In this document: piece after piece, positions 23,864-48,219 of the stretch
Numbering within the stretch: the first letter of the stretch is position 1
Layout: each line of letters starts with the position of its first letter
NCBI GenBank assembly: GCA_963787645.1
Contig: CAWBDS010000005.1
Location: 56,749 to 120,748 of the forward strand
Length of the DNA: 64,000 nucleotides
Source of the DNA: an uncultured Actinomycetes bacterium
GTDB taxonomy: Bacteria > Actinomycetota > Actinomycetes > Streptosporangiales > Streptosporangiaceae
Direction: 5' to 3'
Translations under genes and position numbers: made by a program
The notes under the pieces: model-generated
Databases searched by the model: none
Seen by the model: only the letters and a program-made list of their open reading frames with translations
What the model was told of the DNA's origin: nothing

Positions 23864-24706
23864 CTAGAGCCGCAGGATGCGCGCGGCGTTGTCGTACAGC
23901 ACCGCGCGCGCCACCTCGGCGGGCACGTCCAGCTCGTCGAACTCGGTCAGGCCGCGTTCCGGGGTGAGCAGCGGATAGTCGCTGCCCCACAGGAACTGCC
24001 CGCTCAGCCGGCCGCGCAGCTCGCGGATCACCTCGGGCGGGATGCGCCGCGGCGACCAGCCCGAGATGTCGATGTACACGTTGGTCTTGTGCAGCGCGAC
24101 CGCGATCAGGTCCATGTGCCAGGGCCAGCCGAAGTGCGCCGCCACCACGGTCAGGTCCGGGAACGCCGCGGCCACCGGGTCGAGCTTGAGCGGGTGGGCC
24201 AGGTCGATCCGGATGCCCTGGCCGCCGGGCTGGCGCGCGCCGATGCCGCTGGTGCCGGTGTGGAACAGGGCCAGCAGGCCGTGCTCCTGGCAGGCCGCGA
24301 AGATGGGCCAGTACGCCGGGTCATCGGGCGCGAAGGCCTGCAGCGACGGGTGGAACTTGACCCCGCGCAGCCCCAGCGCGGCGATCGACGCCACCTCGGC
24401 GACCGCCGAGCTCTTGTGCGGGTCGACCGAGCCCAGCCCGGTGAACACGTCCGGGTAGTCCCGGCACGCGGCGGCCACGGTCTCGTTCGGCACCCGGGGC
24501 CGCCCGGTGGCCGTCTCGGCGTCCCAGGCCAGCAGGACCGCCTTCAGCCCCAGCCCGCGGTACCGGGCGGCGAGCTCGTCCAGCGACTGCCGCTGGACCG
24601 GCGAGCGGAAGTACGCCTCGGCCGCCTCGACGTAGCCCGCCATGCTGCCGTCCAGCCAGTCCGGGGTGGGCAGGTGCACATGGAAGTCGATCGCGCGCAA
24701 CGGCAC
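23864..24706 (-). CDS. Amidohydrolase-2 (ACMSD-like, PF04909-type) metal-dependent hydrolase; last gene of the minus-strand biosynthetic operon
   Basis: IDFHVHLP, GVKFHP, LFHTG, AHFGWPW, GSDYP motifs. GTG 24706 lies 19 nt after the MFS stop. Confidence 0.8.
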   Translation of the reverse strand: MPLRAIDFHVHLPTPDWLDGSMAGYVEAAEAYFRSPVQRQSLDELAARYRGLGLKAVLLAWDAETATGRPRVPNETVAAACRDYPDVFTGLGSVDPHKSSAVAEVASIAALGLRGVKFHPSLQAFAPDDPAYWPIFAACQEHGLLALFHTGTSGIGARQPGGQGIRIDLAHPLKLDPVAAAFPDLTVVAAHFGWPWHMDLIAVALHKTNVYIDISGWSPRRIPPEVIRELRGRLSGQFLWGSDYPLLTPERGLTEFDELDVPAEVARAVLYDNAARILRL

Positions 24707-24725
24707 TGCCCCATGGTAGCGGGCC

Positions 24726-25973
24726 TCAGGTCTGCGCTCCCGCGGTGGCCAGCTCGGCGTTTTGCTCCCGCGCGGCCGGGCGCATGCCGTACCACGCGAG
24801 CGCCAGGCCGATGAACGACGCACCGGCGCACAGCCACCACACCTTGCTGCCGATCAGGTTCCAGCCCAGCACTCCCAAGGCCGGGCCGATGGCGAAGCCC
24901 AGCGTGAAGACCGCCTGCGAGGTGCCCACATACTGGCTCTTCAGCCGCGACGGGCCCGCGTTCGCCGGATACGCCAACATCACCGGGCCGGCCGTGATCT
25001 CGGCCAGCGTCCAGATCAGCGTGCCCCCGATGAAGATGACCAGCCCGGCTGGAACCGAGTACAGGGCCTGGCCGAAGCCGAGAAGGGCAAACCCGATCAA
25101 GGCCACCACCCGGGCCGGCCAGCGCTGGGTCAGCTTGGTCATCAGCAGCTCGCACGTGATCACGATCGCGGCGTTCATGGCGACCACGAAGGCGTACCAG
25201 GCGACGGCCAGATGGTCTGCGCGCATGGCCAGCGGCAGCACGCTGACGTACTGGATGTAGACCGTGGCGTTGATCAGCAGGGCGGACAGGAACAGCGCGT
25301 ATCGCCGGTCGGCGAAGACGGCGGCCAGCGCCCAACGTCTGGCCACCGAGACCGGGCCGGTTTCTTCTGCGTGCCGGACGGTCCGGGGCGGCAGCAGGAC
25401 GAGCGCGATCACCGCGTAGCCCATCGACGTCACCGCCTCGCCCCAGAACAGCAGGTTATAGGAGACCAGGATCAGCGTGGCGCCGAGCAGCGGCGCGGCC
25501 GTGGAGCCGATGTTCAGCGCAAGACGGTACAGCGCGAAGACCATGACCTGCCGGTTCTTTGGCGTGAGCTCGGACAGCAGGGCCGCCGAGGCCGGCCGGT
25601 ACACCAGCCCGATCATGCCGACGAGCGCCGCGAGGACCACCAGGGCGGGGTAGTTGCGGACGTACAGGATGCCGAGGATCAGCACCGACCGTCCGGCCAT
25701 GCTGAGCACGGTCCCCCAACGAGCGCCGAGCCAGTCGGCGAGCGCGGTGCCCACGACGACGCCGGCCGCCCCCCCGGCGCCGTAGGCGCTGAGCGCCGTG
25801 CCTGCCTGCACCGCGGTGAAACCGCGGTGCGTCATGAACAGCACCAGGAAGATGTTCAGGAACGTTCCGACCTGGTTCACCAGCACCCCGCCGAGCACCG
25901 CCTTGATCGCGGTCGGCGACTCGCGGAAGGTGACCAGGATGCGTGCGTCCTGTGCGGCTGGCCCGGCGGTCAT
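24726..25973 (-). CDS. MFS transporter (12-TMS), paralog of 31776..33167
   Basis: Hydrophobic 12-TMS pattern. The N-terminus FRESPTAIKAVLGGVLVNQVGTFLNIFLVLFMTHRGFTAVQAG parallels the second MFS. ATGA overlap with the upstream FAD oxidase stop. Confidence 0.85.
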   Translation of the reverse strand: MTAGPAAQDARILVTFRESPTAIKAVLGGVLVNQVGTFLNIFLVLFMTHRGFTAVQAGTALSAYGAGGAAGVVVGTALADWLGARWGTVLSMAGRSVLILGILYVRNYPALVVLAALVGMIGLVYRPASAALLSELTPKNRQVMVFALYRLALNIGSTAAPLLGATLILVSYNLLFWGEAVTSMGYAVIALVLLPPRTVRHAEETGPVSVARRWALAAVFADRRYALFLSALLINATVYIQYVSVLPLAMRADHLAVAWYAFVVAMNAAIVITCELLMTKLTQRWPARVVALIGFALLGFGQALYSVPAGLVIFIGGTLIWTLAEITAGPVMLAYPANAGPSRLKSQYVGTSQAVFTLGFAIGPALGVLGWNLIGSKVWWLCAGASFIGLALAWYGMRPAAREQNAELATAGAQT

Positions 25974-26974
25974 GTCAGTTCGGCCGCAGCACACTCGCTG
26001 GCGGCGAGCGCGGACTTGGCGCCACCGCCGGACCCGCCGGTGAAGGTGAACATGCCGGGTGCCACCTCGCGCAGGGCCAGCACCGGCGGCTCGCAGTAGC
26101 AGTCGGCCGCGCTGACCCGCTGCCGGGCGTGGCCGAGCTTCAGCAACGGGAAGCAGCCGACCGCCAGCTGCAGCGCCCGGTCATGCCAGGACCCGGTGAC
26201 CGGCGTGGCGCCCGGCGGCACGTCCCACTCGGTCGTCGGCACGCCGAGCAGCAGCCCCCCGTCCGCGGTGGGTCGGCCGTACAGGCCGGTCTGCTCGTCG
26301 GCGAACCCGGGCGGTCGCCAGGATCCCGCGTCGTAGACCGCGTACTGGATGGACCTGGTCCGGTACGCTCCGGTCGGCATCTCGAGGGCGCGTAGCAGCC
26401 GCGTGGTCCACGCCCCTGCGGCCAGCACCACCGCGTCATAGCCGCTCGCGGTCCGGGCGCTGTCCAGGGCTGCCTGGCGGACCCGGGCGCCCGGCCGCCC
26501 GGCGAGATCGGCGATCACGGCTTTACGCAGCGCGGCCGGGGAAATGTAGCCCGCCCGCCGTTCACGCACGACCACGCCCGGCCGCTCGCCGGTCCAGCCA
26601 GGGCGGCCGTCCTCGGTGGGGAACACCTCGGCCGGCGTGGTCAGCTCGGCGGATCCGGGCAGCTCCCGTTCGATCTCGGCAATCTCGCCGGCCAGGTCGG
26701 CACCCGCGCCGCGCAGGTAGGCGAACCCGGTCTCGCGATAGTCAGCCCACTGTCGCAGCAGCCGGCTCGCTAGCAGCTCGGCCAGGCTGGCGATAGCCAG
26801 TTCCCGCTGCCGGGGCAGGGGATCATAGGCGCGGACCGCGCCGCCGGACGCCGCGGTCGCGTCCGTCACCCCACCAGGTCCGGTCAGCAGGTCGACCTCG
26901 ATCCCGGGCCGCTGCGCGAGCCGCCAGGCCAGCAGCGAGCCGGCCAGCCCACACCCTGCCACACACACCCGCAC
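25970..26974 (-). CDS. FAD-dependent oxidoreductase, D-amino-acid/glycine-oxidase (DAO) type
   Basis: N-terminal dinucleotide fold VCVAGCGLAGSLLAWRLA, then DAVVLAAGAW; about 330 aa. Confidence 0.8.
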   Translation of the reverse strand: MRVCVAGCGLAGSLLAWRLAQRPGIEVDLLTGPGGVTDATAASGGAVRAYDPLPRQRELAIASLAELLASRLLRQWADYRETGFAYLRGAGADLAGEIAEIERELPGSAELTTPAEVFPTEDGRPGWTGERPGVVVRERRAGYISPAALRKAVIADLAGRPGARVRQAALDSARTASGYDAVVLAAGAWTTRLLRALEMPTGAYRTRSIQYAVYDAGSWRPPGFADEQTGLYGRPTADGGLLLGVPTTEWDVPPGATPVTGSWHDRALQLAVGCFPLLKLGHARQRVSAADCYCEPPVLALREVAPGMFTFTGGSGGGAKSALAASECAAAELT

Positions 26975-26983
26975 GGCCGCCGC

Positions 26984-27187
26984 CTAGCCGTCGCCGGCTA
27001 TTGGGGAGCCGTCGCCGACCGTCGGGAACCGGACGCCTGCTCGTGGAATCAGCAGGTGGCCCAGGCACCGCCGGTGCCGGGGCGGGGGGTCGATCTCCCG
27101 GCTGGCGACCTCGAACAGGTCGCCGGGTGCCGTCCCGGGCCCGGCCGCTTCCTTCAGGTACAGCCCGCTGCGCTCATTGTGCGGCAT
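26984..27187 (-). CDS. Hypothetical small protein (67 aa) filling the gap between ATP-grasp 1 and the FAD oxidase
   Basis: ATG 27187 overlaps the ATP-grasp stop by 14 nt and the ORF ends 10 nt before the oxidase start. About 85% of third codon positions are G/C by hand count. No family recognised. Confidence 0.4.
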   Translation of the reverse strand: MPHNERSGLYLKEAAGPGTAPGDLFEVASREIDPPPRHRRCLGHLLIPRAGVRFPTVGDGSPIAGDG

Positions 27188-28477
27188 GGGCGGGCCTCAG
27201 CCGCTCCCATGGGGTCTTGGTCGTCGTCGGCGCCTGGCCAGCCAGCTTGACCTCGATCATATCCGCGAAGTCCTCCAGCCTGCGCTGGGCGTCCTCGGCG
27301 GAGGTGCCGGTCACGATCAGGAATCCGAGCACGTTGTTCCCGTTCGGCGGCCGGCGGATGATGTCGCCCGGCCGCGCGGTGGCCGCGGCCATCAGGGTCT
27401 GCTCGGCGCCGGCGACCTCAGCGGGTATCCGGACGTATTCCAGCTGGCCTTCGTCGCCGATCAGGCACGTGCCCATCATGTGCACCCCGGTCGGCGCGTA
27501 GTGGTGCACCCGGGGCTGGACGCCGCGGGCCACGTCCATCACCGCCTCGATCGGGCTGTAGTCGGCGGTCACCCGCGCCACCAGGTCCAGGCCGCCGCCG
27601 CCCGGGCGGATGGCGATCTCGACGATGTACGGGTCGCCGCGGTGGTAGCGCACCTCGGCGTGCATCACGCTGCGCCGCAGTCCCTGGGCGTGCGCCGCGG
27701 CGGCGATGACCTGGTGTACCCGGGCCAGTTCCGCGTCGCTCAGCGCGGTCGGCGCCCGGTGCACGTCGTCCTCGAACGTGTCGCCCTCGGCCGTGACCCG
27801 GTCCACGATGGACCCGAGGTAGACCTCGTCGTCCCAGGCCAGTGCCTCGAACAGGTGCTCGTGGCCGTCGAGGAACGATTCCACCAGGACACGGTGCGGG
27901 CCGAGGTCGATGCCTTCGGCTTCGCGCAGATACGGGGGCATGTGCCGCATGCCCTCAGCCGTGATCCGGAAGCGCTGCTCCATCTCGGCGGGGTTATCGA
28001 CCCGGAACACGAAGTCGCTCGCGGCGCCCAGCGTCGGCTTGAGCACGACCGGGTACCCGAATTCCGCGGCGGCGGCCACCGCCTCGGCCGGGCTGCCCAC
28101 CCACCGGTACCGCGGATGCGGCACGCCGGCCCGCTCGTGCGCCTGGCGCATCAGCAGCTTGTTCCGGCTCTTGCGGGCCGCGTCCACACCGACGCCGGGC
28201 AGGCCGAGCGCCTCGGCGACCGCTGCGACCGCGATGACCGCGGACTCGGAGAACGTGAACACGCCGTCGAACGACTCGGCCTGGTGCCATTCCCTGGCCG
28301 CGGCGATGATCTCGCCGATCTGCTGTAGCCGGCGATCCGGTACCGGCCGTCGGCCCAGTAGCCTTCCTCACCGATGCCGTTGAGCACGAACAGGTCCGCG
28401 CCGAAGTCCCTGACCTGACGGTAGCGGCCGAGATGGTAGCTGGCGTGCTGGCGGGCCTCGATGGCGAGCAGCTTCAT
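27174..28477 (-). pseudogene. ATP-grasp ligase 1, one frame break as assembled
   Basis: MKLLAIEARQH...GRYRIAG (ATG 28477, ATGA overlap with the cupin stop) continues in another frame as LQQIGEIIAAAREWH...GYPVVLKP...EIAIRPGGGG. The break is near 28322-28340 and is repaired by adding 1 nt. Confidence 0.8.
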
Positions 28478-28863
28478 GGTGTCGGCGGGCCGTCGTGTCC
28501 GGCGGCGACGTGGCGGGCGGTGAACTTCTCCGACATCTCTGGGTCCCAAAACACGCTGTAGAACTGGAAGTCGGTGGTCCCGGCGTTAATGAGCTGATGG
28601 TTCGTGCCGGGCGGGAAGTGGACGATGTCGCCGGGCAGGAACGGGCTGCGCTCGCCCTCGGCCTCGAGCGCCCCTTCGCCGGAGATCGCGATGAAGATCT
28701 CGTACTCCTGGTGCGCGTGCGGGTCGGTGGCGCCGCCGGGCTCGATGACGCACCACGCGCCCTCGAACGGCGCGTTGAGGGCCGCCCACGGCACCAGGCG
28801 CTGGACGCGGACCCCGTATTCCTCCGGCATGCCGTCGCGGTCAAGCTTGCGGATCTCCATCAC
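28474..28863 (-). CDS. Stand-alone cupin (bicupin motifs 1 and 2 intact)
   Basis: GGATDPHAHQEYEIFIAISG fits G-x5-HxH-x3-E-x6-G and GDIVHFPPGTNHQLIN fits G-x5-PxG-x2-H-x3-N. GTGA/ATG overlap with the N-hydroxylase stop. Confidence 0.9.
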   Translation of the reverse strand: MMEIRKLDRDGMPEEYGVRVQRLVPWAALNAPFEGAWCVIEPGGATDPHAHQEYEIFIAISGEGALEAEGERSPFLPGDIVHFPPGTNHQLINAGTTDFQFYSVFWDPEMSEKFTARHVAAGHDGPPTP

Positions 28864-30191
28864 ACACTCCCGTGGTCAGGCCGCGCTGACGCCGGGTCGT
28901 CGGCGTCTGGTGAACCCCGGCCGGTCTGCTCGCGGTGCGCCAGCAGATCGGCGACGATCTCGCCGGCCCGCACGGCCAGCACACTGATCAGCGAGTCCGC
29001 TATGCCGTGCGTAGCCTCGTTGTTTCCCTGCAGATAACATCCCGCCGTGATGTCCGGCGGGGTGATCATCCGGTAGTGGCGGCTCACCCGGACGTCTCCG
29101 ATACCGCACGCGTCGGCCAGGTCACGGACCAGGCTGGGCGCTCTGGACTCGAAGCCGGTGCCGAGCAGCACCAGGTCGCAGCGCAGTTCGTCCCGGCAGG
29201 CCCGCATCCGGTCGTTGAGCGTGAGCACGATCTCCTCGCCCGCCATCTCGGCCGACTCGATGTCGACCATGGTGACCATGGACAGCCTCTGCTCGCCGGT
29301 CAGCCGCTCCAGGTAGATCTGCCGGAACAGGGTGTTGAGCATATCCGGCGTCACGCCCCCGTAGTTCGTCAGCCGTATGCCCGCCAGCACCTGCTCCCTG
29401 GTCTGCTCGGGGGCGGCGAAGAACTTGTCGGTATAGGAGGGGAAGTACAGCTCGTTGGTGAACTTGCTCGTCTGGTAGTAGTCGAGTCCGGCCGATCTCA
29501 TGATCATCGTGCACCGCGCGCCGGGCAAGCGCTGGTAGATGTCCCACAGCATCTCGGCCGCGCTCTCCGCGGCTCCCACCACCACCACACGGTCGAGTCG
29601 CTGCGGGTCGATCTCGCCGATCTGGCGCAGGTACTCGGTGCTGTGCAGGACGCGCTCCCTGGGCAGCCCGGCGAACGCCGCGGGCACATGCGCGTCGCGG
29701 CCGGCGCCGATCACCAGATTGCGCGCCGCGATCGTCGAGCCGTCCGCCATCCGGGCCAGCCAGCCGTCGGCCACGCCGTCAGCCTGGACGGGCTCGATGC
29801 TCGTGCAGTCCCTGCCGTACTCGACCCGGACCAGCTCCAGCGACTTGGCCGCCCACTGCAGGTAGTCGGAGATCTCCAGCCGGAACGGCAGGAAGCTGGC
29901 CATGTTGATGAAATCGTCCAGCCGGCCGCTGGAGTGCAGATAATTGACAAACGAAAACCGGCTGAGCGGATTGCGCAAGGTGACCAGGTTTTTAAGGAAG
30001 GAGACCTGGCTCTGTGTCCACGGCAGCATCATGCCGCGCTGCCAAACGATGCTCTCGTGCCGCTCGATAACGAGCGTGCTGGACGCTATTTCCGGCGGCG
30101 CCAGTTCCTCGACGGCAACCGCGAAAGCCAGGTTCGAAGGCCCGGCTCCAATGGCGAGAATCTCGACCTCTTGATGAGCCGTCGCCCTCAC
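28860..30191 (-). CDS. Lysine/ornithine N-hydroxylating flavin monooxygenase (SidA/IucD/PvdA family)
   Basis: ILAIGAGPSNLA (FAD site), VVVVGAAESAAE (NADPH site), TGF, and about 440 aa length typical of the family. Confidence 0.9.
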   Translation of the reverse strand: MRATAHQEVEILAIGAGPSNLAFAVAVEELAPPEIASSTLVIERHESIVWQRGMMLPWTQSQVSFLKNLVTLRNPLSRFSFVNYLHSSGRLDDFINMASFLPFRLEISDYLQWAAKSLELVRVEYGRDCTSIEPVQADGVADGWLARMADGSTIAARNLVIGAGRDAHVPAAFAGLPRERVLHSTEYLRQIGEIDPQRLDRVVVVGAAESAAEMLWDIYQRLPGARCTMIMRSAGLDYYQTSKFTNELYFPSYTDKFFAAPEQTREQVLAGIRLTNYGGVTPDMLNTLFRQIYLERLTGEQRLSMVTMVDIESAEMAGEEIVLTLNDRMRACRDELRCDLVLLGTGFESRAPSLVRDLADACGIGDVRVSRHYRMITPPDITAGCYLQGNNEATHGIADSLISVLAVRAGEIVADLLAHREQTGRGSPDADDPASARPDHGSV

Positions 30192-30356
30192 TGCCTTCCC
30201 GCCATAAAGCCGAGCGGGAAGCGCGCGGACGGCACAGAGCCGCCTTTGGCCCCGCTCGCACTAGATGAGAATCGCTCTTGATCGCCAACGACAATGCTCA
30301 CATAGGGGGTGATCCACGTCAAGGGTCCATCGTAACTCAAACACCTCCAAAAGGGA

Positions 30357-30377
30357 GTTGTTACCTTCAGTAACAAC
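30357..30377. promoter_or_regulatory. Perfect palindrome GTTGTTAC-N5-GTAACAAC, candidate operator upstream of the N-hydroxylase operon
   Basis: Read directly. It lies 166-186 nt upstream of GTG 30191 in a 282-bp lower-G+C intergenic region. Confidence 0.3.
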
Positions 30378-30473
30378 CGATGCCCTGGCGGCGGGTAAGG
30401 AGCGCGCCGTGAACTGGGGACGCGGTGGAATATCGCCAGAATAAGGGCAGGAATTTGCACAGGTCAGTTCGGC

Positions 30474-31753
30474 CTAGCCGAACGAAGGCCTGACCTTGAC
30501 GGAGATGAGATCCATCGCCGCCTGGGCGACGGCCAGCGCCTGGTCGGCGGTGGACCCCTCGGCCTCTACCGTTATAACGCGGTCGTGCGAGCTGCGCAGC
30601 GGCGGGGCCCGCTCGCCCACCTTGACCTGGATCGAGCAGCCGTGCACGCCGGGCAGGGCCAGCGCCTCCTCGCGGCCGTCGATGCTCGTCACCTCGCCTG
30701 GCGGCACGGCGCCCATCCATACCGCCGCGTAGCGGTCCGTGACCGGCGGCGCGGTCAGATCCCGGTCCAGCATCATGTCGAGGAAGGCGCCGTTGGCGTC
30801 GTAGCCCGAGGCGATGGAGATGAGCTCGATGATTCCGCCGCCCGCCATCCGGCCCGCGCACTCCATCAGGTAGGGCACGCCATCCTCGACCCGCCACTCG
30901 CAGTGCGTCCACCCGCTGTCCAGGCCCACGGCGTCGAGCACACGCACGGTGCCGGTCAGCAGCCGCTCGGTCAGGTCCGCGCTGATGTCGGCCGGATACA
31001 GGTGACCTTGCTCGACCGGACGCGGGCCGTCGAACAGCAGCGTCCTGGTCACGCCGCCGAACGCCATGTGGCCGGAGCGGAACATCATCTCCACGCTGAA
31101 CTCCTCGCCGCGGACGTACCGCTCGGCGAGCATCCGCAGCGGCAGCGGCCGGTCCGGCAGGAAGACGCCCTCTTCCTGGTGGGTGCACTCCAGCCAGGTC
31201 GCGTCGACCTCACCGGGCTCGGAGACGATCTTGGTCCCGATCGCCGCCTGCCGGTTGGCCGGCTTGAGCACGATCGGGCCGCCGATCTCGGCCATGAACG
31301 CCCTGACCTCGGCCGGCCCCTCACCGGTACCGACTCGGGGTTGGCGATGCCCGCGGACCGGGTTATCTGGCGCAGCAGGTGCTTGTCCCGCAGCGCGCGG
31401 GCGGCTCCGTACCCGGCGCCGCGCACGCCGTACCGTTCCGCCAGCCGCGCCGTGAACGGCACGCCGTAGTCGGATACCGGGAGGATGCCGGCCGGCAGGC
31501 GCTGCCGGTTGGCGTTGTAGAAGCGGTCGGCGGCGCCTTCGAGCTCGTACAGCTCCCACCCGATCAACTCCCGCAGCGTCGGGACGTCGGCGGATTCGGC
31601 CACCGCGTCCCGCTTGCGCAGCACGTCCGGTTCGTCGATGAAGACCGCGGAGCCGTCGGGCAGGTACTGGCCCAGGCCCCGCAGCCCGGCGAGCGTCAAG
31701 CCGATGAAGATGACCGACCCGTCGCTGTTCTCCGCAACGCCTACGTTGCCCAT
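30474..31753 (-). pseudogene. ATP-grasp ligase 2, one frame break as assembled
   Basis: MGNVGVAENSDGSVIFIG...RDKHLLRQITRSAGIANPESVPV continues in another frame as (T)GEGPAEVRAFMAEIGGPIVLKP...ECAGRMAGGG. The break is near 31318-31335 and is repaired by adding 1 nt. Confidence 0.8.
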
Positions 31754-31775
31754 CGCGCTTGGCGCTTCCCTTCGC

Positions 31776-33167
31776 TCAGTTTGGTGATTCGGCGCTGCCG
31801 GGAGCCGCCTGCGTCGCGCCGCCTTGTTCCACGCCGGGAAGGTCGCCGTCCGAAAGCGGCATGTCCGGAGGCGGCATTTCGGCCGGTTCCCTCTCGGCGG
31901 CCTCGGCGGCCTCGGCCGGCTGGACGGCCGGCTTGTCCTGCATCAACGACCAGATCCCGGGGAGGGTGATCACCGCGCCGAGGATGGCGCAGACCAGCCA
32001 GACGCCCTTGCCGATGTGGGTCCACAGCAGCACCCCGGCTACCGGGCCGATCGCGTAGCCGAGCAGGAACGCGCCGTTGGCCATGCCGATGTAACGCGCC
32101 TTGGCTCCCGGCGGGGCGATCCGGGCCGGATGGGCAAAGGCCGCCGGTCCGCCGATCAGCTGGCCCGCGCAGCCGATGAGCATGGCGACGAACAGGACGG
32201 CCAGGCCGCCGGGCAGCCCGAATGAGCTGCGGCCTATCCACAGCAGCACCCATCCGCTCATCACCGCCAGCCAGATCGGCCAGGTCTGCGTCCGCTTGGT
32301 GACGCCGAGTTGGAGGATGACTCCCAGCGTGGCGGAAACGGCGGTGAGCGATGCGTAGATCCAGGTCGGGTACTGCTCCGCCTTCAGCATCAGGGGCAGG
32401 ACCGCGAAGAACTGGATGTGCACCAGCCCGTTGCACAGCATCAGCAGCAGGTAGACCAGGTACCTGCGGTCCCGCAGGATGTCCAGGTAGCTGGTCCGGC
32501 CCTGCCGGGCCGAGGCGGGCAGCCCGGTAGCCTTCTCCGTGTCCCGGGCGAGCTGCGCCGAGCGCAGCGCGAAGGCGGCGATGCCGCAGTAGGCCAGGGA
32601 CGTCCCGGCGTCCGCCCAGAAGACCAGGTCCCAGGAGACCGTGCTCACCGCCGCGCCTACCAGCGGCGCCACCGCCAGACCGCCGTTGTTCACGGTCCGG
32701 TACATGGCCTGCATCATGACCTGGCGGTCCCTGGGCGCCAGGTCGAACAGCAGCGTGCTCGAGGCGGTCGCCGACGCCCGCGCCATGGCGCCCGACAGTG
32801 CCGCCGCCGCGTAGATGGCCGGCAGGTTGTGCAGCAGCGTCAGCGAGTAGGTGAACAGGCCGGCCGCGCCCATCGACGCCACGATCGTCGAGCGCCGCCC
32901 GAGCCAGTCCGCCAGCGCGCCGCCGCCGAGCGTGCCGACAATGGCACCGGCCGAATAGCAGCCGAGGGCGAGGCCGGCCTGCGCCACGGTGAAACCGCGC
33001 GAGATCAGGAAGAGCACGAGAAAGAGCTGGACAAATGCGCCGACCTGGTTGATGAAGACGCCGAGCAGCACCACCTGCGCGCTGATCGGCGTCTCCCGCA
33101 GCATCCGCAGGACGCCCGCGGGTGCGTCCGGCCCGGATTGAGACCGGCGCCATCTGGCCAGCACCAT
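31776..33167 (-). CDS. MFS transporter (12-TMS) with an Ala/Glu/Pro-rich C-terminal tail; paralog of 24726..25973
   Basis: LRETPISAQVVLLGVFINQVGAFVQLFLVLFLISRGFTVAQAG parallels the first MFS. Start ATG 33167 (alternative 33104). Confidence 0.8.
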   Translation of the reverse strand: MVLARWRRSQSGPDAPAGVLRMLRETPISAQVVLLGVFINQVGAFVQLFLVLFLISRGFTVAQAGLALGCYSAGAIVGTLGGGALADWLGRRSTIVASMGAAGLFTYSLTLLHNLPAIYAAAALSGAMARASATASSTLLFDLAPRDRQVMMQAMYRTVNNGGLAVAPLVGAAVSTVSWDLVFWADAGTSLAYCGIAAFALRSAQLARDTEKATGLPASARQGRTSYLDILRDRRYLVYLLLMLCNGLVHIQFFAVLPLMLKAEQYPTWIYASLTAVSATLGVILQLGVTKRTQTWPIWLAVMSGWVLLWIGRSSFGLPGGLAVLFVAMLIGCAGQLIGGPAAFAHPARIAPPGAKARYIGMANGAFLLGYAIGPVAGVLLWTHIGKGVWLVCAILGAVITLPGIWSLMQDKPAVQPAEAAEAAEREPAEMPPPDMPLSDGDLPGVEQGGATQAAPGSAESPN

Positions 33168-33302
33168 CCGCCTGTAGAGCCCCTTCCGTGGTGAGCGAAA
33201 CGGGACACATGGCGCGCCTCGAGGATGCTTAGGCTGCCTGCAGCGCGTTGCCGTCACGGTACCAAAACGCACTTAACGCGACAATGTCGCGAGGCCGCCG
33301 CG

Positions 33303-34337
33303 CTAGTGCAGGCGCACCGAGATGTGCTCTTCGGGGTACGTCGACAGGCCCGGGACCGAAGTCGGCGACGGGTTCTGGATCAGGACGCTGAAGCCGCATT
33401 CCCCGACCGCGTTGCCGCCGACCTTGTTCGGCCCTCCGTTGCTGTCGCCGTACTCCACCGCCGGGTTGTTGCCCGTGCAGACCATGTTGCCGTACACGAC
33501 GTTGTTAATGGCCTCGTTGGCATCGGGCGAGGCCGTGTTGCCGGAGTCGATAAGGCTGCCCCCCACGGTGTTGCGGACAATGCCGTACCAGTTGGTGACC
33601 ATCCCGGTCACGGACATGTTGCCGCCGACCCTGACGTTGGCGTAGTCGCTGTAGGCGGGCAGCGCGATCGGCGCGTCAAGCTGGCCCGGAGCAGCCGGGG
33701 GACCTCCCGGGATGTACTGCGCGAAGATACCGATCGGGACGAAGTTGAGGCCGTCAGGGCCGCCCCCGCCGACCTGGACCACGTTCCCGCGCACCGTCGT
33801 GTTGTGGACCACGGTGCCCGCCGGGTCGTAGGAGAGCAGGTTGCCGCCGATGGTCTCGGTCGCGGCCAGGGTGGCGCCGGTGGTGAAGGCGGTCGCGTCG
33901 TCATCACACGGGAAATCGGGAGTGGTGCCCAGCGCCGGGGGCGGGGCAAACCACAGGGTGACCAGCAGCGGATAGCAGCCGAACAGCACGCTCGCGTCCT
34001 TCTCGACCACCATGTTGCCGCCGACCGAGACGTTCGAGGTGCCCGAATCGGTCTGGTCGTTCATACCGAAATCCGCGACCAGTGACGCGTTCGGCGCGAC
34101 GGTTAGGTTGCCTGCAATGCGGACATTTCCCGCGTCTACCAGGCAGGTGCCGGCAATGGTCACGTTGGCGAAATCGCCGGCCAGCGTGCCGGGTGCAGCC
34201 GAGGTGCCGGTGCAAGTGTAATTGCCGCCGGACCCGATGGGCGCCGCGGCGGCTATCGCGGGAACCGCGGCCACGATGAGGCCGGCTATTCCGGCCGCGC
34301 TCAAAATGCGCGAGACCGATCTAGAGTTCAATCTCAT
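33303..34337 (-). CDS. Secreted protein with GGN-rich beta-helix-like repeats
   Basis: Signal peptide MRLNSRSVSRILSAAGIAGLIVAAVPAIAAAAP, followed by repeated G(G)N.xV/IxG segments and several Cys pairs. No family name recognised. Confidence 0.7.
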   Translation of the reverse strand: MRLNSRSVSRILSAAGIAGLIVAAVPAIAAAAPIGSGGNYTCTGTSAAPGTLAGDFANVTIAGTCLVDAGNVRIAGNLTVAPNASLVADFGMNDQTDSGTSNVSVGGNMVVEKDASVLFGCYPLLVTLWFAPPPALGTTPDFPCDDDATAFTTGATLAATETIGGNLLSYDPAGTVVHNTTVRGNVVQVGGGGPDGLNFVPIGIFAQYIPGGPPAAPGQLDAPIALPAYSDYANVRVGGNMSVTGMVTNWYGIVRNTVGGSLIDSGNTASPDANEAINNVVYGNMVCTGNNPAVEYGDSNGGPNKVGGNAVGECGFSVLIQNPSPTSVPGLSTYPEEHISVRLH

Positions 34338-34371
34338 GGGTCCTCTCTTACGTGCCAGATTTGATGGGGAT

Positions 34372-35640
34372 TTATCCGGTGCGGGAAACGGGGGCGGGCT
34401 GGATGATCAGGGCGGCCTGGGCGGCGTCCAGCGCGACCTCGCATTCCGGGGCGGTCGACGTCAGCACGGTGACGAATGCGACCCGGCCGGACATGGTGCC
34501 CTTGGGCGGCGGCGACATGACGTCGCCGGGTCCGGCCAGCGTCACGGCCTGATCGGTTTCCGGTGGCAGGGACGCCGCCTCGAACCGGATCGCCTCGATC
34601 GTGGTGTCGTCCTCGGCGGCGTAGCAGAACTGCACCCCGGCGGCGGCGGACCGGTCTGCTTTCAGCTCCGGGCGCTGCCCGCAGGCGACCGCGGCGGCGG
34701 CCAGGCCCGGGTCGATGCCGCTGGCGCGCATCCCCAGGTAGGGGATGAGATCGCCGCCCAGGCGCGCGTTGACCTCGATGACCTTCGGCCCGTCCGCGGT
34801 CAGCTTGTACTCGGCGTGGGTTATCCCGTCGGTGAAGCCCAGCGCCTCATGCGCGGCCCGCATGACCCGGATGAGCCCGGGATCGGCCAGCAGGGGATCG
34901 GCGGCGTCGACGACGTGGCCGACCTCCTCGAAGTAGGGCGGGTACCCGACCCGTTTGCGGGCCACGAACATCGGCATCAGCTCGCCGTGATAGACCGCCG
35001 AGTCCACGCTGATCTCGGGACCGGGCACGTACTGCTCGACCAGCACGCCCTCGTCGTAGCGCCATGAACCCGGCACCTCGCAGTCGCGCGCGAACTCGAA
35101 TGTCGGGGCCAGGTCGGCCGGGGCGTTGGCGAGCACCACGCCGAGGCTGCCGCCCATCGCCCGCGGCTTCAGCACGACCGGGTAACCCATCTGCCCGGCC
35201 GCGGCGGCCGCTTGGCTTACGCTGGCCACCAGGACCGACCGCGGCTGGGGAACGCCCCCCGCGTCCAGTGCCAGCCTGGTCAGGTGCTTGTCCCGGCAGC
35301 GCATCACCATGTCCGGATCGCCGCCCGGCAGGCCGAGTGCGGCGGCCACCGTGGCTGCCTGGAGGATCCGCGCCTCATCCCAGCTCAGCACGCCCTGGAC
35401 GGACTCGCGGGCGGCAAGTTCGCGGGCTGCCGCGCACATCGCCGTGGCGTCGATGGTGTCGTCCATGTCCAGCACGGTCCAGCCGGCCAGGTAGCCCTTC
35501 GCCCACCCGGGCTCGGCGCCGCAGAGCAGGTGGACGCGGTATCGGGAGGCGACCGAGGCGAGCAGGTACTCGCGGAAGGCCTGCTTGCCCGTCCCGATCA
35601 GCAGCAGTACCGGGCCGTCGGATCTCGTGGGCCCGGTCAC
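34372..35640 (-). CDS. ATP-grasp ligase 3
   Basis: RDKHLTR, GYPVVLKP, EQYV.G.E.SV, EVNARLGG motifs. GTG 35640 forms a GTGA overlap with the MetRS-paralog stop. Confidence 0.85.
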   Translation of the reverse strand: MTGPTRSDGPVLLLIGTGKQAFREYLLASVASRYRVHLLCGAEPGWAKGYLAGWTVLDMDDTIDATAMCAAARELAARESVQGVLSWDEARILQAATVAAALGLPGGDPDMVMRCRDKHLTRLALDAGGVPQPRSVLVASVSQAAAAAGQMGYPVVLKPRAMGGSLGVVLANAPADLAPTFEFARDCEVPGSWRYDEGVLVEQYVPGPEISVDSAVYHGELMPMFVARKRVGYPPYFEEVGHVVDAADPLLADPGLIRVMRAAHEALGFTDGITHAEYKLTADGPKVIEVNARLGGDLIPYLGMRASGIDPGLAAAAVACGQRPELKADRSAAAGVQFCYAAEDDTTIEAIRFEAASLPPETDQAVTLAGPGDVMSPPPKGTMSGRVAFVTVLTSTAPECEVALDAAQAALIIQPAPVSRTG

Positions 35641-37034
35641 GACCGCCCCGACAGCGCGGCCAGCGGCGCCGAGTCGGCCCCGGCCCCGGCGGTCAGCGCC
35701 AGCACCAGGCACCGGGTGGCCAGCGCGGAGTCGAACCCGCTCAGCTGCAGCGCCCGCGCTGCCCGCTCCAGCTCGGCCGCGGCCAGCTCGGCCGGCAGCA
35801 GGCCGGCCGACGGTGCCGCCCCGGCCAGCAGCGGCCGCACGTAGTCGCAGAATGCGCGGTAGGACTCCCGAGTGAAGTTGCTCTCGTACCGGTCCGGCCG
35901 GTCCCAGGACAGGTATAGCCGGACCAGCTCACGGTCCTCCTCGGCCAGGAACTCATCCGCCCACAGCGCGTGGTTGCGGCTGGTGGAGAACTTCAGCCCG
36001 TCCAGCAGGTAGAGCTCGTTCACGGTGGCGCCGCGCAGCAGCGGCCGCGTCACTCCCGCCGCGGCCAGGATCGCCGGGTAGAGGACTGCGAAGTAGAACG
36101 TGTTGTCGATGCCGTTGAAGTGCCAGACGCCGTCCACCTCGTGCCAGGCCTCGACCCGCCGGGCCAGGGTGTCCGCGCTGGGGTCCAGGGCCAGGGCCGG
36201 CCCGTAGAGATAGCTCAGGCCGAGCTCGGTGGGGAAATCGACCCGCAGCCCGGACAGCTCGCCGTCGCACTCGATGCCCCAGTTGGTCGGGTAGGCGACG
36301 GGATAGTCGGGGAGCGGCACCCGCAGGTAGTGCGCCAGTGCCGCCCGGACCCGCCCCGGCAGGTCGGCCTGCTGCCACTCCGCGACCAGCTGCGCTCGGT
36401 AGTCTTCCAGCGGCAGGACCGGCACCGTGACCTGCATCGGGCGCAGCGCGCCGCCGCACCGGGCGCAGCTGGCGTCGACGAGCAGCTCGGCGGAGGTGAA
36501 CCCGCCGCAGGGCTCGCAGGACAGCCCGTTCGCCCCGGCGCCGCAGATCGGGCACTTGCCGACCACGTAGGAGTGGTGCATGGTGCGACCGCAGTCCGCG
36601 CACGCGTGCAGCGTGACCTCGCGCATGCTGATGCTGCCCGCGGCGATGAGCTCGGTCAGCATGCCGGTGACGGCGCGCTGGAACGCGTCGTCTTCCGGGT
36701 CGAGGAACACGTCGTAACCGATGCCCGCCAGCTCGAATGCCGTGGTGATCTGGGTCCGGAACCCCCTGACCATCTCGTTGACGTCGACCCCGAGGTTCTC
36801 CGCCTTGGTCAGCACGTAGTTGGGGTGCACGTCGACGCCGGCCAGGGTAAGCACCCGGTCCCCCCGGGCTCGCGCCGCGCGCGAGGCAACGTCGGCGGCC
36901 AGGTACGGGCCGGACAGGTGCCCGATGTGCAGCGGGCCGTTGACCGTGGGCTGCGGAATGACAATAACGGTCACTCCAGGCTGCTTGGTCACCAATTTGT
37001 CCGCCGGTTCTGGGTAAGGCGAAACGTGCGACAC
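35637..37034 (-). CDS. Methionyl-tRNA-synthetase-like (class I aaRS catalytic core) paralog with a short C-terminus
   Basis: NGPLHIGHLSG (HIGH) and LKFSTSRN (KMSKS variant). Four Cys pairs (CADCG, CPICG, CEPCG, CARCG) match MetRS zinc knuckles. Only about 100 aa follow KFSTS. Start uncertain (GTG 37034, GTG 36992 or 37082). Confidence 0.85.
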   Translation of the reverse strand: MSHVSPYPEPADKLVTKQPGVTVIVIPQPTVNGPLHIGHLSGPYLAADVASRAARARGDRVLTLAGVDVHPNYVLTKAENLGVDVNEMVRGFRTQITTAFELAGIGYDVFLDPEDDAFQRAVTGMLTELIAAGSISMREVTLHACADCGRTMHHSYVVGKCPICGAGANGLSCEPCGGFTSAELLVDASCARCGGALRPMQVTVPVLPLEDYRAQLVAEWQQADLPGRVRAALAHYLRVPLPDYPVAYPTNWGIECDGELSGLRVDFPTELGLSYLYGPALALDPSADTLARRVEAWHEVDGVWHFNGIDNTFYFAVLYPAILAAAGVTRPLLRGATVNELYLLDGLKFSTSRNHALWADEFLAEEDRELVRLYLSWDRPDRYESNFTRESYRAFCDYVRPLLAGAAPSAGLLPAELAAAELERAARALQLSGFDSALATRCLVLALTAGAGADSAPLAALSGRS

Positions 37035-37431: not shown

Positions 37432-38163
37432 TTGAGCGAGGGTCATTCTTCCCGCGATGCCGCGGCCGTCTCGATGTGGGATGAGGCTTATGGCCCGGCG
37501 CACCTGAAAGACCAGCAGAACCTGTGGGGCGATCCGCCCGTGCCTTACGCCGCGCGGGCTGCTGCTGCCTTCGCGGCCAATTCTTCCCGGCTGGTAATTG
37601 ACCTGCCGTGCGGTGACGGGCGCAATCTCGCCCCCCTGACGGAGGGCACGTCCATCCTGCTCGGCGCCGATACCTCGGTGCAGGCGATGACGATCGCGGA
37701 AAGGGTGGCGGCCCGTGCGGGAATTGCCGCCATGACCGTCTTCCTGCGCATGGACGTCTTCGATACGGGCCTGCTCGACAACTCTGTCGACGGCATTTTC
37801 TGCTGGGATCTGCTCGGGCACCTGAGAAATGTCTCGGACGCGCTGCGGGAACTTTACCGGGTGATCAGGCCGGGTGGCATCATCGTCGCCAACATGTGGA
37901 CGATGAATGACTGCCAGACATCTGATCCGGACATCAGGCAGATCGGCCCGAAAGAATACATCGACCATTTCGATTTTTACTGCAGATTCTACGATCAGGA
38001 TGACCTCGGCACGCTGCTGAATGCTACCGGGATAAGCGCGGAATCGGTTGAGGTCAGTGCCTGGACCGAGCCCGCGCACGCCGACTACCGGACCTATGAG
38101 CATGACCATGAGAGCCTGGCCTTCACGATCAGGAAGGGCGTGGATGAGCACCAGGCTCGGTGA
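37432..38163 (+). CDS. Class I SAM-dependent methyltransferase
   Basis: VIDLPCGDGRN (motif I), DGIFCWDLLGH, LRPGG. TTG 37432 is preceded by GGAGG at 5 nt; the alternative start is ATG 37474. Confidence 0.8.
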   Translation: MSEGHSSRDAAAVSMWDEAYGPAHLKDQQNLWGDPPVPYAARAAAAFAANSSRLVIDLPCGDGRNLAPLTEGTSILLGADTSVQAMTIAERVAARAGIAAMTVFLRMDVFDTGLLDNSVDGIFCWDLLGHLRNVSDALRELYRVIRPGGIIVANMWTMNDCQTSDPDIRQIGPKEYIDHFDFYCRFYDQDDLGTLLNATGISAESVEVSAWTEPAHADYRTYEHDHESLAFTIRKGVDEHQAR

Positions 38164-39124
38164 GCCCAGGTCGGCCGAAGCCGAGTTGGCGGCGCCCGGA
38201 TTCAGCGCGGGCGTCGGCTCGGCGATCGCCCATCACGGCGAGTTGCTCCAGGGTGTGTTCGATGACGGCGCGGGTCGGCTGCGCCGCGCGCTGGTGACGA
38301 TGCCGCTGCCCGGCCGGGGCAGCCGGGCGGTGTTCTACCCGAGCCAGAGCCACTGGGGCGTGGTGGGGCCGGCCGGGCTGACCAAGGCCAGGCGCGCGGC
38401 CATCTACGCGCTGCGTGAGTTCTCCGGGCACCCGTCGCCGGCCAAGGGCGGCCGGGTGGAGATCACCAGCAGCGTCCCGCACGGTATCGGCATGGGCTCC
38501 TCGACCAGCGACGTCGCCGCGGTCATCCGGGCGGTGGCCGACTATCACGGCGTGACCCTGTCCCGGGAGGAGGTCGGCCGGCTCGCGGTGCTGGCCGAGG
38601 TAGCCGCGGACTCAGTGATGATCGACGACCGCGTGGTCCTGTTCGCCCACCGGGACGGGCTGGTGCTCGAGACGTTCGGGCACCAGCTGCCACCCATGGT
38701 CGTGGTCGGCTGTGACACGGCGCCCGGCCAGGTCGTCGAGACGCTGGGCCTGCCGCCCGCCGACTACAGCGACAAGGAGGCCGGGGAGTTCCAGGTGCTG
38801 CGCGGAGCGCTGCGCCGGGCCATCGCCACGGAGGACGTCGCCCTGCTCGGCAAGGTCGCGACGGCCAGCGCGCGGATCAACCAGCGCTACCTGCCCAAGC
38901 CGGGCCTGGAGGCGCTGATCGAGCTGTGCGTGCGGCATGGCGGCGCCGGCCTGCAGATCGCCCACAGCGGCACCGTGGCCGGGCTGATCTTCGACGCCCG
39001 GCACCCGCGCATGGGCATCGAGGGCTGCGTGCTGCGGATCAAGGAGCTCGGGTTCGAGGTGACCGATGTCATCGAGCCCGCGCACGCCCCGGCGCTGCGC
39101 GCGGCGCACCGCACGGCCTCATGA
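38144..39124 (+). CDS. GHMP-family kinase, PduX (L-threonine kinase)-like
   Basis: HHGELLQG, SSVPHGIGMGSSTSDVAA (GHMP motif II), LPKPGLEALIEL......GLQIAHSGTVAGLIFD; colinear with Salmonella PduX as I recall it. Confidence 0.8.
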   Translation: MSTRLGEPRSAEAELAAPGFSAGVGSAIAHHGELLQGVFDDGAGRLRRALVTMPLPGRGSRAVFYPSQSHWGVVGPAGLTKARRAAIYALREFSGHPSPAKGGRVEITSSVPHGIGMGSSTSDVAAVIRAVADYHGVTLSREEVGRLAVLAEVAADSVMIDDRVVLFAHRDGLVLETFGHQLPPMVVVGCDTAPGQVVETLGLPPADYSDKEAGEFQVLRGALRRAIATEDVALLGKVATASARINQRYLPKPGLEALIELCVRHGGAGLQIAHSGTVAGLIFDARHPRMGIEGCVLRIKELGFEVTDVIEPAHAPALRAAHRTAS

Positions 39125-40191
39125 GCGTCCGCGGCAGCTTTGCCGAGGCGACCGACGCCTATCAGCTGCCCAGGCTTATCCGGCTCGGCCCGAATCTGTA
39201 CGCGGCCTGCTTCACGCTGATGAAGATGGTTCCCGCCCGGTTCATCCTGCGCCGGGCCGCGGAGCGGGGAATGCTGGAGCCCGGGACCGTCATCGTCGAG
39301 ACGACCTCGGGCACCTTTGGCCTGGCGCTGGCCATGCAGGCCGTGCACATGGACCGCCAGCTGATCCTGGTCGGCGATCCCGTCATCGACGAGCGCCTGT
39401 ACCGCAGGCTGACCGACCTCGGCACCGTCGTCGAACGGGTCAGCGCGGAGGCGGGCCGGATACCCGGCGGGTACCAGGCCGCCCGGCTGCAGCGGCTCGA
39501 GGCCATCATGGCCGATCTCGACGCCGCCTTCTGCCCCTGGCAGTACTCGAACCCGGATAACCCGCGCGCCTATGCCACGGTGGCCGAATACTTCCTGGAG
39601 TGCCTCGGCCAGGTCGACTGCATCGTCGGGCCGGTGGGGTCGGGCGGCTCGATGTGCGGGACTGTCACCCACGTCCGGGCGCTGCTGCCCGAATGCCGCG
39701 CCGTCGGCGTCGACAGCCATTCCAGCGTGCTGTTCGGCCATCCCGATGGTCCCCGCGAGCTGCGCGGCATGGGCATGAGCCTGATGCCGGACAACCTGGA
39801 TCACCGGGTCTTCGACCAGGTGCACTGGACCGCTCCCGCGCCTGCCTACCAGGCGACCCGCCAGCTGCACCAGCGGCACGCCCTGTTCATGGGGCCGTCG
39901 AGCGGCGCGGCCTACCTGGCCGCGCGCTGGTGGGCCGGCGCGAATCCGGACGCCCTGACCGTCGTGATGATGCCGGACGAGGGATACCGCTACCAGGACA
40001 CCGTTTACGACGACGCCTGGCTGGCCGGCCGCGGCCACCTGGATGAGCCGCTGCCCGCCGAGCCCGTCATGGTCTCAGATCCGGCCCGGCCGGCCGGCTC
40101 CTGGATGGCGTTCGACTGGGCCAGGCGCTCTTACGCCGACGCCATGTCGCGGCCGCTATCGTCGGCGGCCGCCGACGGTGAGCCGTCGTGA
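39121..40191 (+). CDS. Fold-type II PLP-dependent enzyme (cysteine synthase/CBS/SbnA-like family)
   Basis: ETTSGTFGLALA, GPVGSGGSMCG (phosphate-binding loop), GPSSGAAY. ATGA overlap with the kinase stop. Confidence 0.8.
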   Translation: MSVRGSFAEATDAYQLPRLIRLGPNLYAACFTLMKMVPARFILRRAAERGMLEPGTVIVETTSGTFGLALAMQAVHMDRQLILVGDPVIDERLYRRLTDLGTVVERVSAEAGRIPGGYQAARLQRLEAIMADLDAAFCPWQYSNPDNPRAYATVAEYFLECLGQVDCIVGPVGSGGSMCGTVTHVRALLPECRAVGVDSHSSVLFGHPDGPRELRGMGMSLMPDNLDHRVFDQVHWTAPAPAYQATRQLHQRHALFMGPSSGAAYLAARWWAGANPDALTVVMMPDEGYRYQDTVYDDAWLAGRGHLDEPLPAEPVMVSDPARPAGSWMAFDWARRSYADAMSRPLSSAAADGEPS

Positions 40192-48113: not shown

Positions 48114-48219
48114 AGCGGACCCCGGGCGCCGACACGCGGCTAGCTTAACGCTCCGTTAATCTGCGCCCCGGGGCCAGGACTAGGCTGGAGACCGGCACTT
48201 CCGGGTAAAGGGGCTGTCG

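Follow-up and report, generated by a model that had tools for sequence, protein, structure and literature searches.

The window, a 64-kb stretch of contig CAWBDS010000005.1 from an uncultured Actinomycetes bacterium, contained a peptide-type actinomycete gene cluster that very probably encodes a two-component (split) hydrazine synthetase. The two putative components, a methionyl-tRNA synthetase (MetRS)-like protein and a cupin, were encoded by separate genes on the minus strand. Because the G+C content of the window was about 72%, the genes were called by the G+C content at third codon positions (GC3) and checked with Pfam. The genes of the two components and of two predicted partner enzymes were located as follows.

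35637..37034, minus strand: standalone MetRS-like protein, 465 amino acids (aa) from GTG 37034 (PF09334, E 2e-47; GC3 0.91)
28474..28863, minus strand: standalone cupin, 128/129 aa (PF07883, Cupin_2, E 9e-17; GC3 0.91)
28860..30191, minus strand: flavin-dependent lysine/ornithine N-hydroxylase, directly upstream of the cupin gene (PF13434, E 3e-84)
25970..26974, minus strand: DAO-type FAD oxidoreductase (PF01266, E 2e-23)

As judged from sequence comparison, the MetRS-like protein is almost certainly the aminoacyl-hydroxylamine synthetase (aaHS) half of a hydrazine synthetase. Pfam detected the catalytic domain only, with neither a cupin nor an anticodon-binding domain, and the stop-to-stop reading frame was only 518 codons long, which left no room for a fused cupin. 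The best solved relatives were the PyrN-C structures (PDB codes 9vq4 and 9l8v), with an E value of 2e-58 and 36% identity. The score was 201 bits for PyrN-C and 125 bits for the best true MetRS (PDB code 1rqg). The NCBIfam MetRS models gave at most 191 bits, whereas their cut-offs exceed 330 bits and that of the best-scoring model is 553 bits. A genuine methionyl-tRNA synthetase was ruled out by this deficit together with the missing anticodon-binding domain.

The catalytic motifs of the MetRS-like protein were well conserved. The segments H36-I-G-H39 and K348-F-S-T-S352 aligned to 147-HLGH-150 and 458-KFSTG-462 of PyrN, respectively. All eight cysteines of the zinc knuckle were present, aligned to Cys256, Cys259, Cys272, Cys275, Cys285, Cys288, Cys302, and Cys305 of PyrN, and were invariant in 121 relatives. 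The equivalents of PyrN residues Thr141, Gly418, Asp420, Asn421, Asn449, and Tyr452, which bind the ribose, the α-amino and carboxyl groups, and the adenine of the adenylate, were also conserved. Taken together, the HIGH, KFSTS, zinc-knuckle, and adenylate-binding positions were nearly invariant among the 121 family members. Residue Arg425 of PyrN, which binds the glutamate side chain, was replaced by Phe in the window protein, and Val179 and Gln182 were replaced by Asp and Pro, respectively. These replacements indicate that the substrate of the MetRS-like protein is not glutamate.

The MetRS-like protein ended about 70 residues past the KFSTS region, and most of the C-terminal helical bundle was absent. 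This truncation of the helical region accounted for the length of 465 aa, compared with about 550 aa for the C-terminal domain of PyrN. Since the close homologues were mostly 452 aa, the true start may lie about 13 codons downstream of 37034. With 452–465 aa, the clade of the window protein ranked among the shortest in the family when full-length members were considered; standalone members mostly had 500–560 aa.

The cupin was 100% identical to a 128-aa NCBI protein (P0121), the record of which starts at ATG 28860. Its solved relatives were 4rd7 (E 9e-42), Plu4264 (E 3e-29), and RHS1 (PDB code 5uqp, E 4e-8). The motif HAHQEYE...H placed the site at residues His49, His51, Glu55, and His89. Of 84 aligned cupins, 74 had this HHEH signature, and most of them were the N-terminal domains of fused synthetases. 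Residue Glu55 was the counterpart of the essential residues Glu69 of RHS1 and Glu56 of PyrN. A hidden Markov model (HMM) built from the cupin's own relatives matched the N-termini of 80 fused cupin–MetRS-like proteins, down to an E value of 4e-26. The 4RD7 and Plu4264 (PDB codes 4MV2 and 4Q29) proteins were, as the window cupin, standalone cupins of about 127 aa with an HxHxxxE...H motif, and shared 50% and 41% identity with it over the aligned stretch, respectively. Both are structural-genomics entries with names that carry no assigned function.

In the known systems, an O-aminoacyl-N-hydroxylysine ester is formed by the MetRS-like part and then converted to the N–N bond through a rearrangement by the cupin (PMC8664883; bioRxiv 10.1101/2025.08.22.671884). 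The first-pass annotation of this DNA had given the same division of labour, which agrees with both sources, and had taken the cupin and the MetRS-like protein for the two halves of a hydrazine synthetase. The catalytic signatures argue for this assignment at the level of sequence, as does the gene content, since the N-hydroxylase and the DAO-type enzyme together with the cupin and the MetRS-like protein complete the four-gene hydrazine cassette. Tri27 is a DAO-type cleaving enzyme, and by analogy we infer that the DAO-type enzyme of the window is the counterpart of Tri27 and FuzF and would cleave the lysine–hydrazine adduct to free an α-hydrazino acid.

Several characterized systems resembled the one in the window. 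In Rhodococcus jostii RHA1, a standalone MetRS-like protein forms the hydrazine in vivo together with the RHS1 cupin (Zhao et al. 2021, PMC8664883), and RHS1 complements the MetRS domain of PyrN in trans in vitro at 25 µM (PMC8664883). Like that of the window, the RHS1 system is naturally split; its cupin is active in trans and retains the catalytic Glu. However, the similarity of the two cupin sequences is distant (E 4e-8), and the first ligand differs, the site being Asp/His/Glu/His in RHS1 and His/His/Glu/His in the window cupin. The RHS1 system also uses glutamate, whereas the window protein has Phe at the position of the glutamate-binding Arg425, and the releasing enzyme of the RHS1 cluster is of the saccharopine-dehydrogenase type instead of the DAO type. 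The AsnHS system of Burkholderia ubonensis, composed of AsnHS-aaHS and AsnHS-cupin, was validated in vivo and in vitro (bioRxiv 10.1101/2025.08.22.671884). It is a two-protein system as well, but it is proteobacterial and asparagine-specific and has another gene context. The didomain enzymes Spb40, Tri28, PyrN, AzsN, and ThzN have the same two modules and the same chemistry on one polypeptide of about 650 aa. They share with the window an N-hydroxylase and, in the glycine systems, a DAO-type enzyme (Tri27).

The fuscazine cluster (2026) was compared with the window by gene content. It has a separate cupin, FuzE, and a separate MetRS-like protein, FuzG, beside two ATP-grasp ligases. The flavoenzyme FuzF frees hydrazino-arginine, which the ATP-grasp enzyme FuzC then uses as a nucleophile to form a hydrazide, and FuzH adds pipecolate. 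Both clusters are actinomycete clusters with the four-gene hydrazine cassette, a separate cupin and MetRS-like protein, and ATP-grasp enzymes in place of a nonribosomal peptide synthetase (NRPS). Unlike the fuscazine cluster, the window had four ATP-grasp genes interleaved with the cassette and the cupin and MetRS-like genes 6.8 kb apart. It also had an additional divergent operon with a methyltransferase, a GHMP kinase, an SbnA-like enzyme, an argininosuccinate lyase (ASL)-like enzyme, and an aspartate-N-hydroxylase-like flavoprotein. No domains of a tRNA deacylase (FuzB) or an iron/2-oxoglutarate-dependent arginine hydroxylase (FuzA) were found among the cluster genes of the window, and therefore the cluster is not the fuz cluster itself. 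A tRNA deacylase is the marker by which the fuscazine cluster was discovered; one sister locus described below (L007) carried an AlaX-like tRNA_SAD protein (3920–4663), possibly a tRNA deacylase, of a kind that the window does not have.

The survey of split and fused architectures proposed in the first-pass annotation was carried out on the family. The best 120 MetRS-like clusters at 90% identity were all of 417–521 aa with PF09334 only, and the best 120 cupin matches were all of 107–145 aa; both sets were thus standalone. Among the best 150 MetRS-like representatives at 50% identity, 80 carried an N-terminal cupin, 56 were full-length standalone proteins, 12 were fragments, and 2 had another extension. 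Standalone proteins made up 56 of the 136 full-length representatives (about 40%), some metagenomic ones of which could be truncated gene calls. In a rough neighbor-joining tree, at least 18 switches between fused and standalone forms were counted, compared with about 44 when the labels were shuffled. The clade of the window protein was small and made up of short standalone enzymes, with a fused protein (P0244) among the nearest neighbors of the window protein. Two gene architectures are common in the hydrazine synthetase family; the split is one of them and is not novel. The suggestion in the first-pass annotation that the split is unusual was not upheld, given the published RHS1, AsnHS, and FuzE/FuzG pairs and the standalone share among the surveyed representatives.

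The minus-strand block ran from 37034 to 23864. The genes were arranged in the order MetRS-like protein, ATP-grasp 3, 344-aa protein, MFS transporter, and ATP-grasp 2, followed after a gap of 282 nt by N-hydroxylase, cupin, ATP-grasp 1, DAO-type enzyme, second MFS transporter, and amidohydrolase. The features of the block in addition to the cassette are given below, where L001 is a metagenome contig 90–94% identical to the window.

34372..35640, minus strand: ATP-grasp ligase 3 (Pfam ATP-grasp_4 and related families)
33303..34337, minus strand: conserved 344-aa protein with an N-terminal signal-like hydrophobic stretch (no Pfam or NCBIfam match)
31776..33210, minus strand: MFS-type transporter, probable exporter (GC3 0.90; L001 orthologue PF07690, MFS_1)
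30474..31753, minus strand: ATP-grasp ligase 2, L-amino-acid-ligase type (C-terminal part ATP-grasp_4, LAL_C2)
30192..30473, no strand: intergenic stretch of 282 nt with a weak coding signal in the GC3 plot
27174..28477, minus strand: ATP-grasp ligase 1, L-amino-acid-ligase type (ATP-grasp_4, LAL_C2, ATPgrasp_N)
24726..25994, minus strand: second MFS transporter (PF07690, E 5e-36)
23864..24823, minus strand: amidohydrolase (PF04909, E 4e-47; conserved in L001)

The junctions around the two synthetase genes were read from the sequence. The extent to which the TGA of the N-hydroxylase gene (28862–28860) overlapped the cupin gene depended on the cupin start: a start at GTG 28863 gives a 4-nt overlap (GTGA), and a start at ATG 28860, which the public record and L001 have, gives a 1-nt overlap (TGATG). 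The TGA of the cupin gene (28476–28474) formed an ATGA overlap with the ATG of ATP-grasp 1 (28477), and the TGA of the MetRS-like gene (35639–35637) formed a GTGA overlap with the GTG of ATP-grasp 3 (35640). The cupin start and the MetRS-like stop were 6,774 nt apart. The separate cupin reading frame with its two overlapping neighbors, and the MetRS paralog 6.8 kb away coupled to ATP-grasp 3, were thus found as first annotated. However, overlaps of 4 nt also coupled four consecutive genes of the divergent operon, those of the SbnA-like enzyme, the ASL-like lyase, ATP-grasp 4, and the FAD flavoprotein. The overlaps are therefore the general syntax of the cluster rather than a mark of partnership.

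The first-pass annotation had also placed the two genes in different sub-operons, and the 282-nt stretch of weak coding signal between the gene groups (30192–30473) fits this arrangement. The stretch is probably the start of a sub-operon of N-hydroxylase, cupin, and ATP-grasp 1, with boundaries drawn from gap sizes and the coding signal alone. Between 30192 and 30473, neither a promoter nor a terminator consensus was detected, and the promoter, terminator, and Rfam scans gave nothing above chance.

The amidohydrolase gene is likely the left edge of the cluster, and the genes to its left belonged to polyhydroxyalkanoate and fatty-acid (primary) metabolism. On the right flank were genes for DUF885 and YjbR proteins and a degraded gene of the AMP-binding type. 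A small gene of the YjbR family (PF04237) was located near the cluster edge in the window (46501–46860, minus strand) and in two sister loci, L007 (1116–1457) and L008 (2622–3020). The AMP-binding remnant, of the acyl-CoA-ligase type (46961–48155, minus strand), consisted of two pieces in different frames, which matched positions 24–95 and 264–347 of PF00501. The DNA between the two pieces was too short, and the remnant looks like a genuine pseudogene.

Two of the ATP-grasp genes of the block were interrupted by frame changes. In ATP-grasp 1, the frame changed near 28326, about 150 nt into the gene, and in ATP-grasp 2 near 31320; each corresponded to a 1-nt deletion relative to the intact gene of L001, which was used as the reference (437 and 426 aa, respectively). 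Since the codon bias continues past each shift, they are recent frameshifts or consensus errors. Another apparent frameshift was observed in a metagenome-assembled genome (MAG) at locus L005 (10001–11372), where the MetRS-like gene was split in two frames at about 10694.

The transporter at 31776..33210 gave no Pfam match for the window protein itself at E 0.01. The second MFS gene, located between the DAO and amidohydrolase genes, lay in 1.2 kb that was skipped in the alignment to the otherwise collinear L001, from which this gene is absent. Orthologues of the 344-aa protein were found in L001 and L002 by tblastn, and an identical copy was found in a Logan metagenome contig from run ERR11594400. 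Unassigned genes of about 310 aa were noted in L007 and L008.

The divergent operon (37432–44697) began next to the MetRS-like gene on the plus strand and was composed of six genes.

37432..38163, plus strand: S-adenosylmethionine-dependent methyltransferase, first gene (Methyltransf_11, E 8e-16)
38048..39124, plus strand: GHMP-family kinase, start uncertain (PF00288, PF08544)
39121..40191, plus strand: SbnA-like pyridoxal phosphate enzyme of the β-replacement type (PALP, E 2e-30; ATGA overlap with the upstream gene)
40188..41639, plus strand: ASL-like lyase (Lyase_1, ASL_C2)
41636..42868, plus strand: ATP-grasp ligase 4, L-amino-acid-ligase type (LAL_C2, ATP-grasp; N-terminal half of PRK02186, E 4e-103)
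42865..44697, plus strand: 610-aa FAD/NAD(P) flavoprotein of the CreE/FzmM type (PF13454, E 2e-32)

The SbnA-like enzyme matched the NCBIfam SbnA family with an E value of 3e-59, under the cut-off of that family. The ASL-like lyase scored 287 bits with the argH model TIGR00838 (cut-off 279.5) and also matched the C-terminal half of PRK02186. Together with ATP-grasp 4, it suggests a coupled ligate-then-eliminate step of the type that may use aspartate as a nitrogen donor. ATP-grasp 3 of the minus-strand block also matched the N-terminal half of PRK02186, an NCBIfam model of 890 positions in which that half aligns to ATP-grasp proteins. The 610-aa flavoprotein matched PDB entry 8cp2 over its full length (E 3e-57), which is the nitrosuccinate-forming L-aspartate N-hydroxylase of Streptomyces sp. 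V2 (PMC10404684). This flavoprotein, encoded two genes past the ASL-like gene, is a putative second nitrogen-oxidizing module in the hydrazine cluster. A complete nitrite-generating CreE/CreD pathway was not adopted, as the lyase scores as an argininosuccinate lyase; it was further disfavored by the sister loci L003 and L007, which have no lyase yet keep the flavoprotein.

The gene context of the family was taken from metagenome and MAG contigs. A scan of a genome collection gave three loci, in which the nearest named relative was a Micromonosporaceae MAG (77%). Six sister loci (L001, L002, L003, L007, L008, and L009) encoded MetRS-like proteins of 72–94% identity. The cupin was a separate gene in each of the six, all of which also retained ATP-grasp, methyltransferase, and GHMP-kinase genes. 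The N-hydroxylase gene was present in five and the DAO gene in four, L003 ending at the end of its contig, and the SbnA-like gene was present in all but L009. Most members of the divergent operon accompany the hydrazine genes in these loci, and the methyltransferase gene adjoined the MetRS-like gene in all six. The DAO gene was beside the MetRS-like gene in L004, L005, L007, and L009.

The spacing of the cupin and MetRS-like genes ranged from a 4-nt overlap in L007 to 6.7 kb in L001. The order N-hydroxylase, cupin, and ATP-grasp of the window was shared by L001, L002, and L008, whereas L007 had the order cupin, MetRS-like protein, DAO-type enzyme, and N-hydroxylase. In L009, the cupin gene preceded the MetRS-like gene by 127 nt, and in L003 it lay 1.4 kb from the MetRS-like gene on the opposite strand. 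In the more distant MAG locus L004 (57% identical), it was directly upstream. The 6.8-kb separation in the window was best explained by gene shuffling within the cluster family and not by different chemistry. The couplings to the ATP-grasp genes also varied. The orthologue of ATP-grasp 3 in L001 had the same 4-nt overlap with the MetRS-like gene, but this coupling was absent from L002, L007, L008, and L009, and the coupling of cupin and ATP-grasp 1 was absent from L007 and L009. Because neither coupling is conserved, a special hand-over from the cupin or the MetRS-like protein to its coupled ATP-grasp enzyme is disfavored. A small avidin-like gene (PF26421) was observed directly upstream of an ATP-grasp gene in L002 (11598–11834), L007 (13736–14068), and L009 (13772–14122), and was present in neither the window nor L001.

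The homologies are consistent with the following pathway. The flavin-dependent N-hydroxylase would form N6-hydroxylysine, or possibly N5-hydroxyornithine. The free MetRS-like protein would adenylate an amino acid without tRNA and transfer it to the oxygen of the N-hydroxyl group, giving an unstable O-aminoacyl-hydroxylamine ester. The free, metal-binding cupin would take the ester in trans, and its conserved Glu would promote the rearrangement to an N–N bonded hydrazine of lysine and the amino acid. The DAO-type flavoenzyme would then remove the lysine skeleton oxidatively to leave a free α-hydrazino acid, which the ATP-grasp enzymes of the L-amino-acid-ligase type may extend to a short peptide through a hydrazide bond as in fuscazine. 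The MFS pumps may export the peptide product, and a further unusual building block is probably provided or modified by the enzymes of the divergent operon.

Several findings weigh against a functional split synthetase of this kind. The published specificity codes available for comparison are TPDQWMNH for glycine, SADQWYGH for threonine, and SFVQALNR for glutamate; the pocket residues Pro27, Gln28, Asp68, Pro71, Asn311, and Phe315 of the window protein matched none of these three codes, of which positions 7 and 8 were not reliably alignable. The donor may be lysine or ornithine, since the best solved relatives of the N-hydroxylase were MbtG, a lysine N6-monooxygenase (E 4e-78), and KtzI, an ornithine N5-monooxygenase. 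The didomain enzyme Tri28 still formed some product in vitro without its cupin, and the dependence on the cupin may therefore vary between pathways. Two of the three ATP-grasp genes of the minus-strand operon were frameshifted, which may leave this organism with a broken pathway. Finally, tblastn detected no second cupin or MetRS-like gene within the 64 kb, and hence no fused cupin–MetRS gene of the kind that the first-pass annotation had named as a possible true partner; the window covers only this part of the genome, and a second, fused synthetase may be encoded elsewhere.

A split synthetase raises the question of how the ester reaches the cupin. The O-aminoacyl-hydroxylamine ester is very labile and turns into a side product by a non-enzymatic rearrangement (PMC8664883), and proximity of the two proteins would help if they formed an obligate, stable non-covalent complex that channels the ester. 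The repeated fusion and fission in the family is typical of interacting partners, and the 4-nt overlap of the two genes in L007 is a coupling that often accompanies complex formation. Even so, an obligate complex appears unlikely, if still worth considering. At 25 µM, the foreign RHS1 cupin acted in trans with the MetRS domain of PyrN, and no specific interface is therefore required; the two genes were also 2–7 kb apart in the window, L001, L002, and L008 and on opposite strands in L003.

That the cluster is decaying, with real frameshifts in ATP-grasp 1 and 2 so that the hydrazine may form while the final peptide does not, was judged unlikely. The 1-nt deletions in both genes, set against the intact genes of L001, and the clearly degraded AMP-binding gene 10 kb away point in this direction. 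On the other hand, GC3 stayed above 0.9 undiminished past each shift, and all other genes of the cluster were intact. One deletion was located in a G/C run, as is typical of consensus errors, and the contig looks metagenome-derived.

The first-pass annotation had further considered that the ester might be partly diverted, for example by capture with the coupled ATP-grasp enzymes, the separation from the cupin then being functional. The capacity of the ester to rearrange spontaneously and the couplings of the MetRS-like gene with ATP-grasp 3 and of the cupin gene with ATP-grasp 1 are all that speak for such a diversion, which is highly improbable. The 4-nt overlaps are general in the cluster, and the couplings to ATP-grasp genes are missing in several sister loci. 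In addition, ATP-grasp ligases activate carboxylates as acyl phosphates, and in fuscazine, the sole characterized analogue, FuzC acts after release by FuzF and uses the hydrazino acid as a nucleophile. A cupin in trans suffices in vitro.

It is equally improbable that the cupin and the MetRS-like protein are not partners, the cupin catalyzing another reaction, for example as a dioxygenase or isomerase linked to ATP-grasp 1, and the MetRS-like protein acting alone or being a resistance paralogue of MetRS. The product of Tri28 without its cupin and the lack of an assigned function for 4rd7 and Plu4264 would allow such a reading. Against it, the family HMM recognizes MetRS-fused cupin domains with a common HHEH site. 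The cupin gene also accompanied the MetRS-like gene in each of the six sister loci, and it accompanied the N-hydroxylase and DAO genes as far as the recovered contigs extended to them. In addition, the MetRS-like protein has no anticodon-binding domain and scores far under the MetRS cut-offs.

The split synthetase architecture has been known since 2021 and its enzymes act in trans, and the split itself leaves the understanding of these enzymes unchanged. What may set the window apart is the clade to which its MetRS-like protein belongs. We tentatively propose, as a possible rather than a probable reading, that it represents a separate clade of aaHS enzymes that are short (about 455 aa), always standalone, and abundant in soil Actinomycetota, with an invariant pocket unlike the published glycine, threonine, and glutamate codes and with an uncharacterized cluster family in which the hydrazine cassette is combined with four ATP-grasp ligases and a second nitrogen-oxidizing module. 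The module in this reading comprises the aspartate-N-hydroxylase homologue, the ASL-like lyase, the SbnA-like enzyme, and the GHMP kinase. If this is true, the clade would offer a new acceptor amino acid, and a new hydrazide peptide or, conceivably, a peptide with a more elaborate N–N motif.

The cluster family is widely distributed among uncultured Actinomycetota, where it comprised more than 100 sequence clusters at 90% identity. The natural series of arrangements, in which the cupin and MetRS-like genes overlap, lie 6.8 kb apart, or, in a sister lineage, form one fused gene, could serve for testing the relevance of ester channeling. The family could also extend biocatalytic hydrazine synthesis by a new amino-acid specificity, and it could yield a new N–N-containing peptide made by ATP-grasp ligases independently of the ribosome and of NRPS enzymes.

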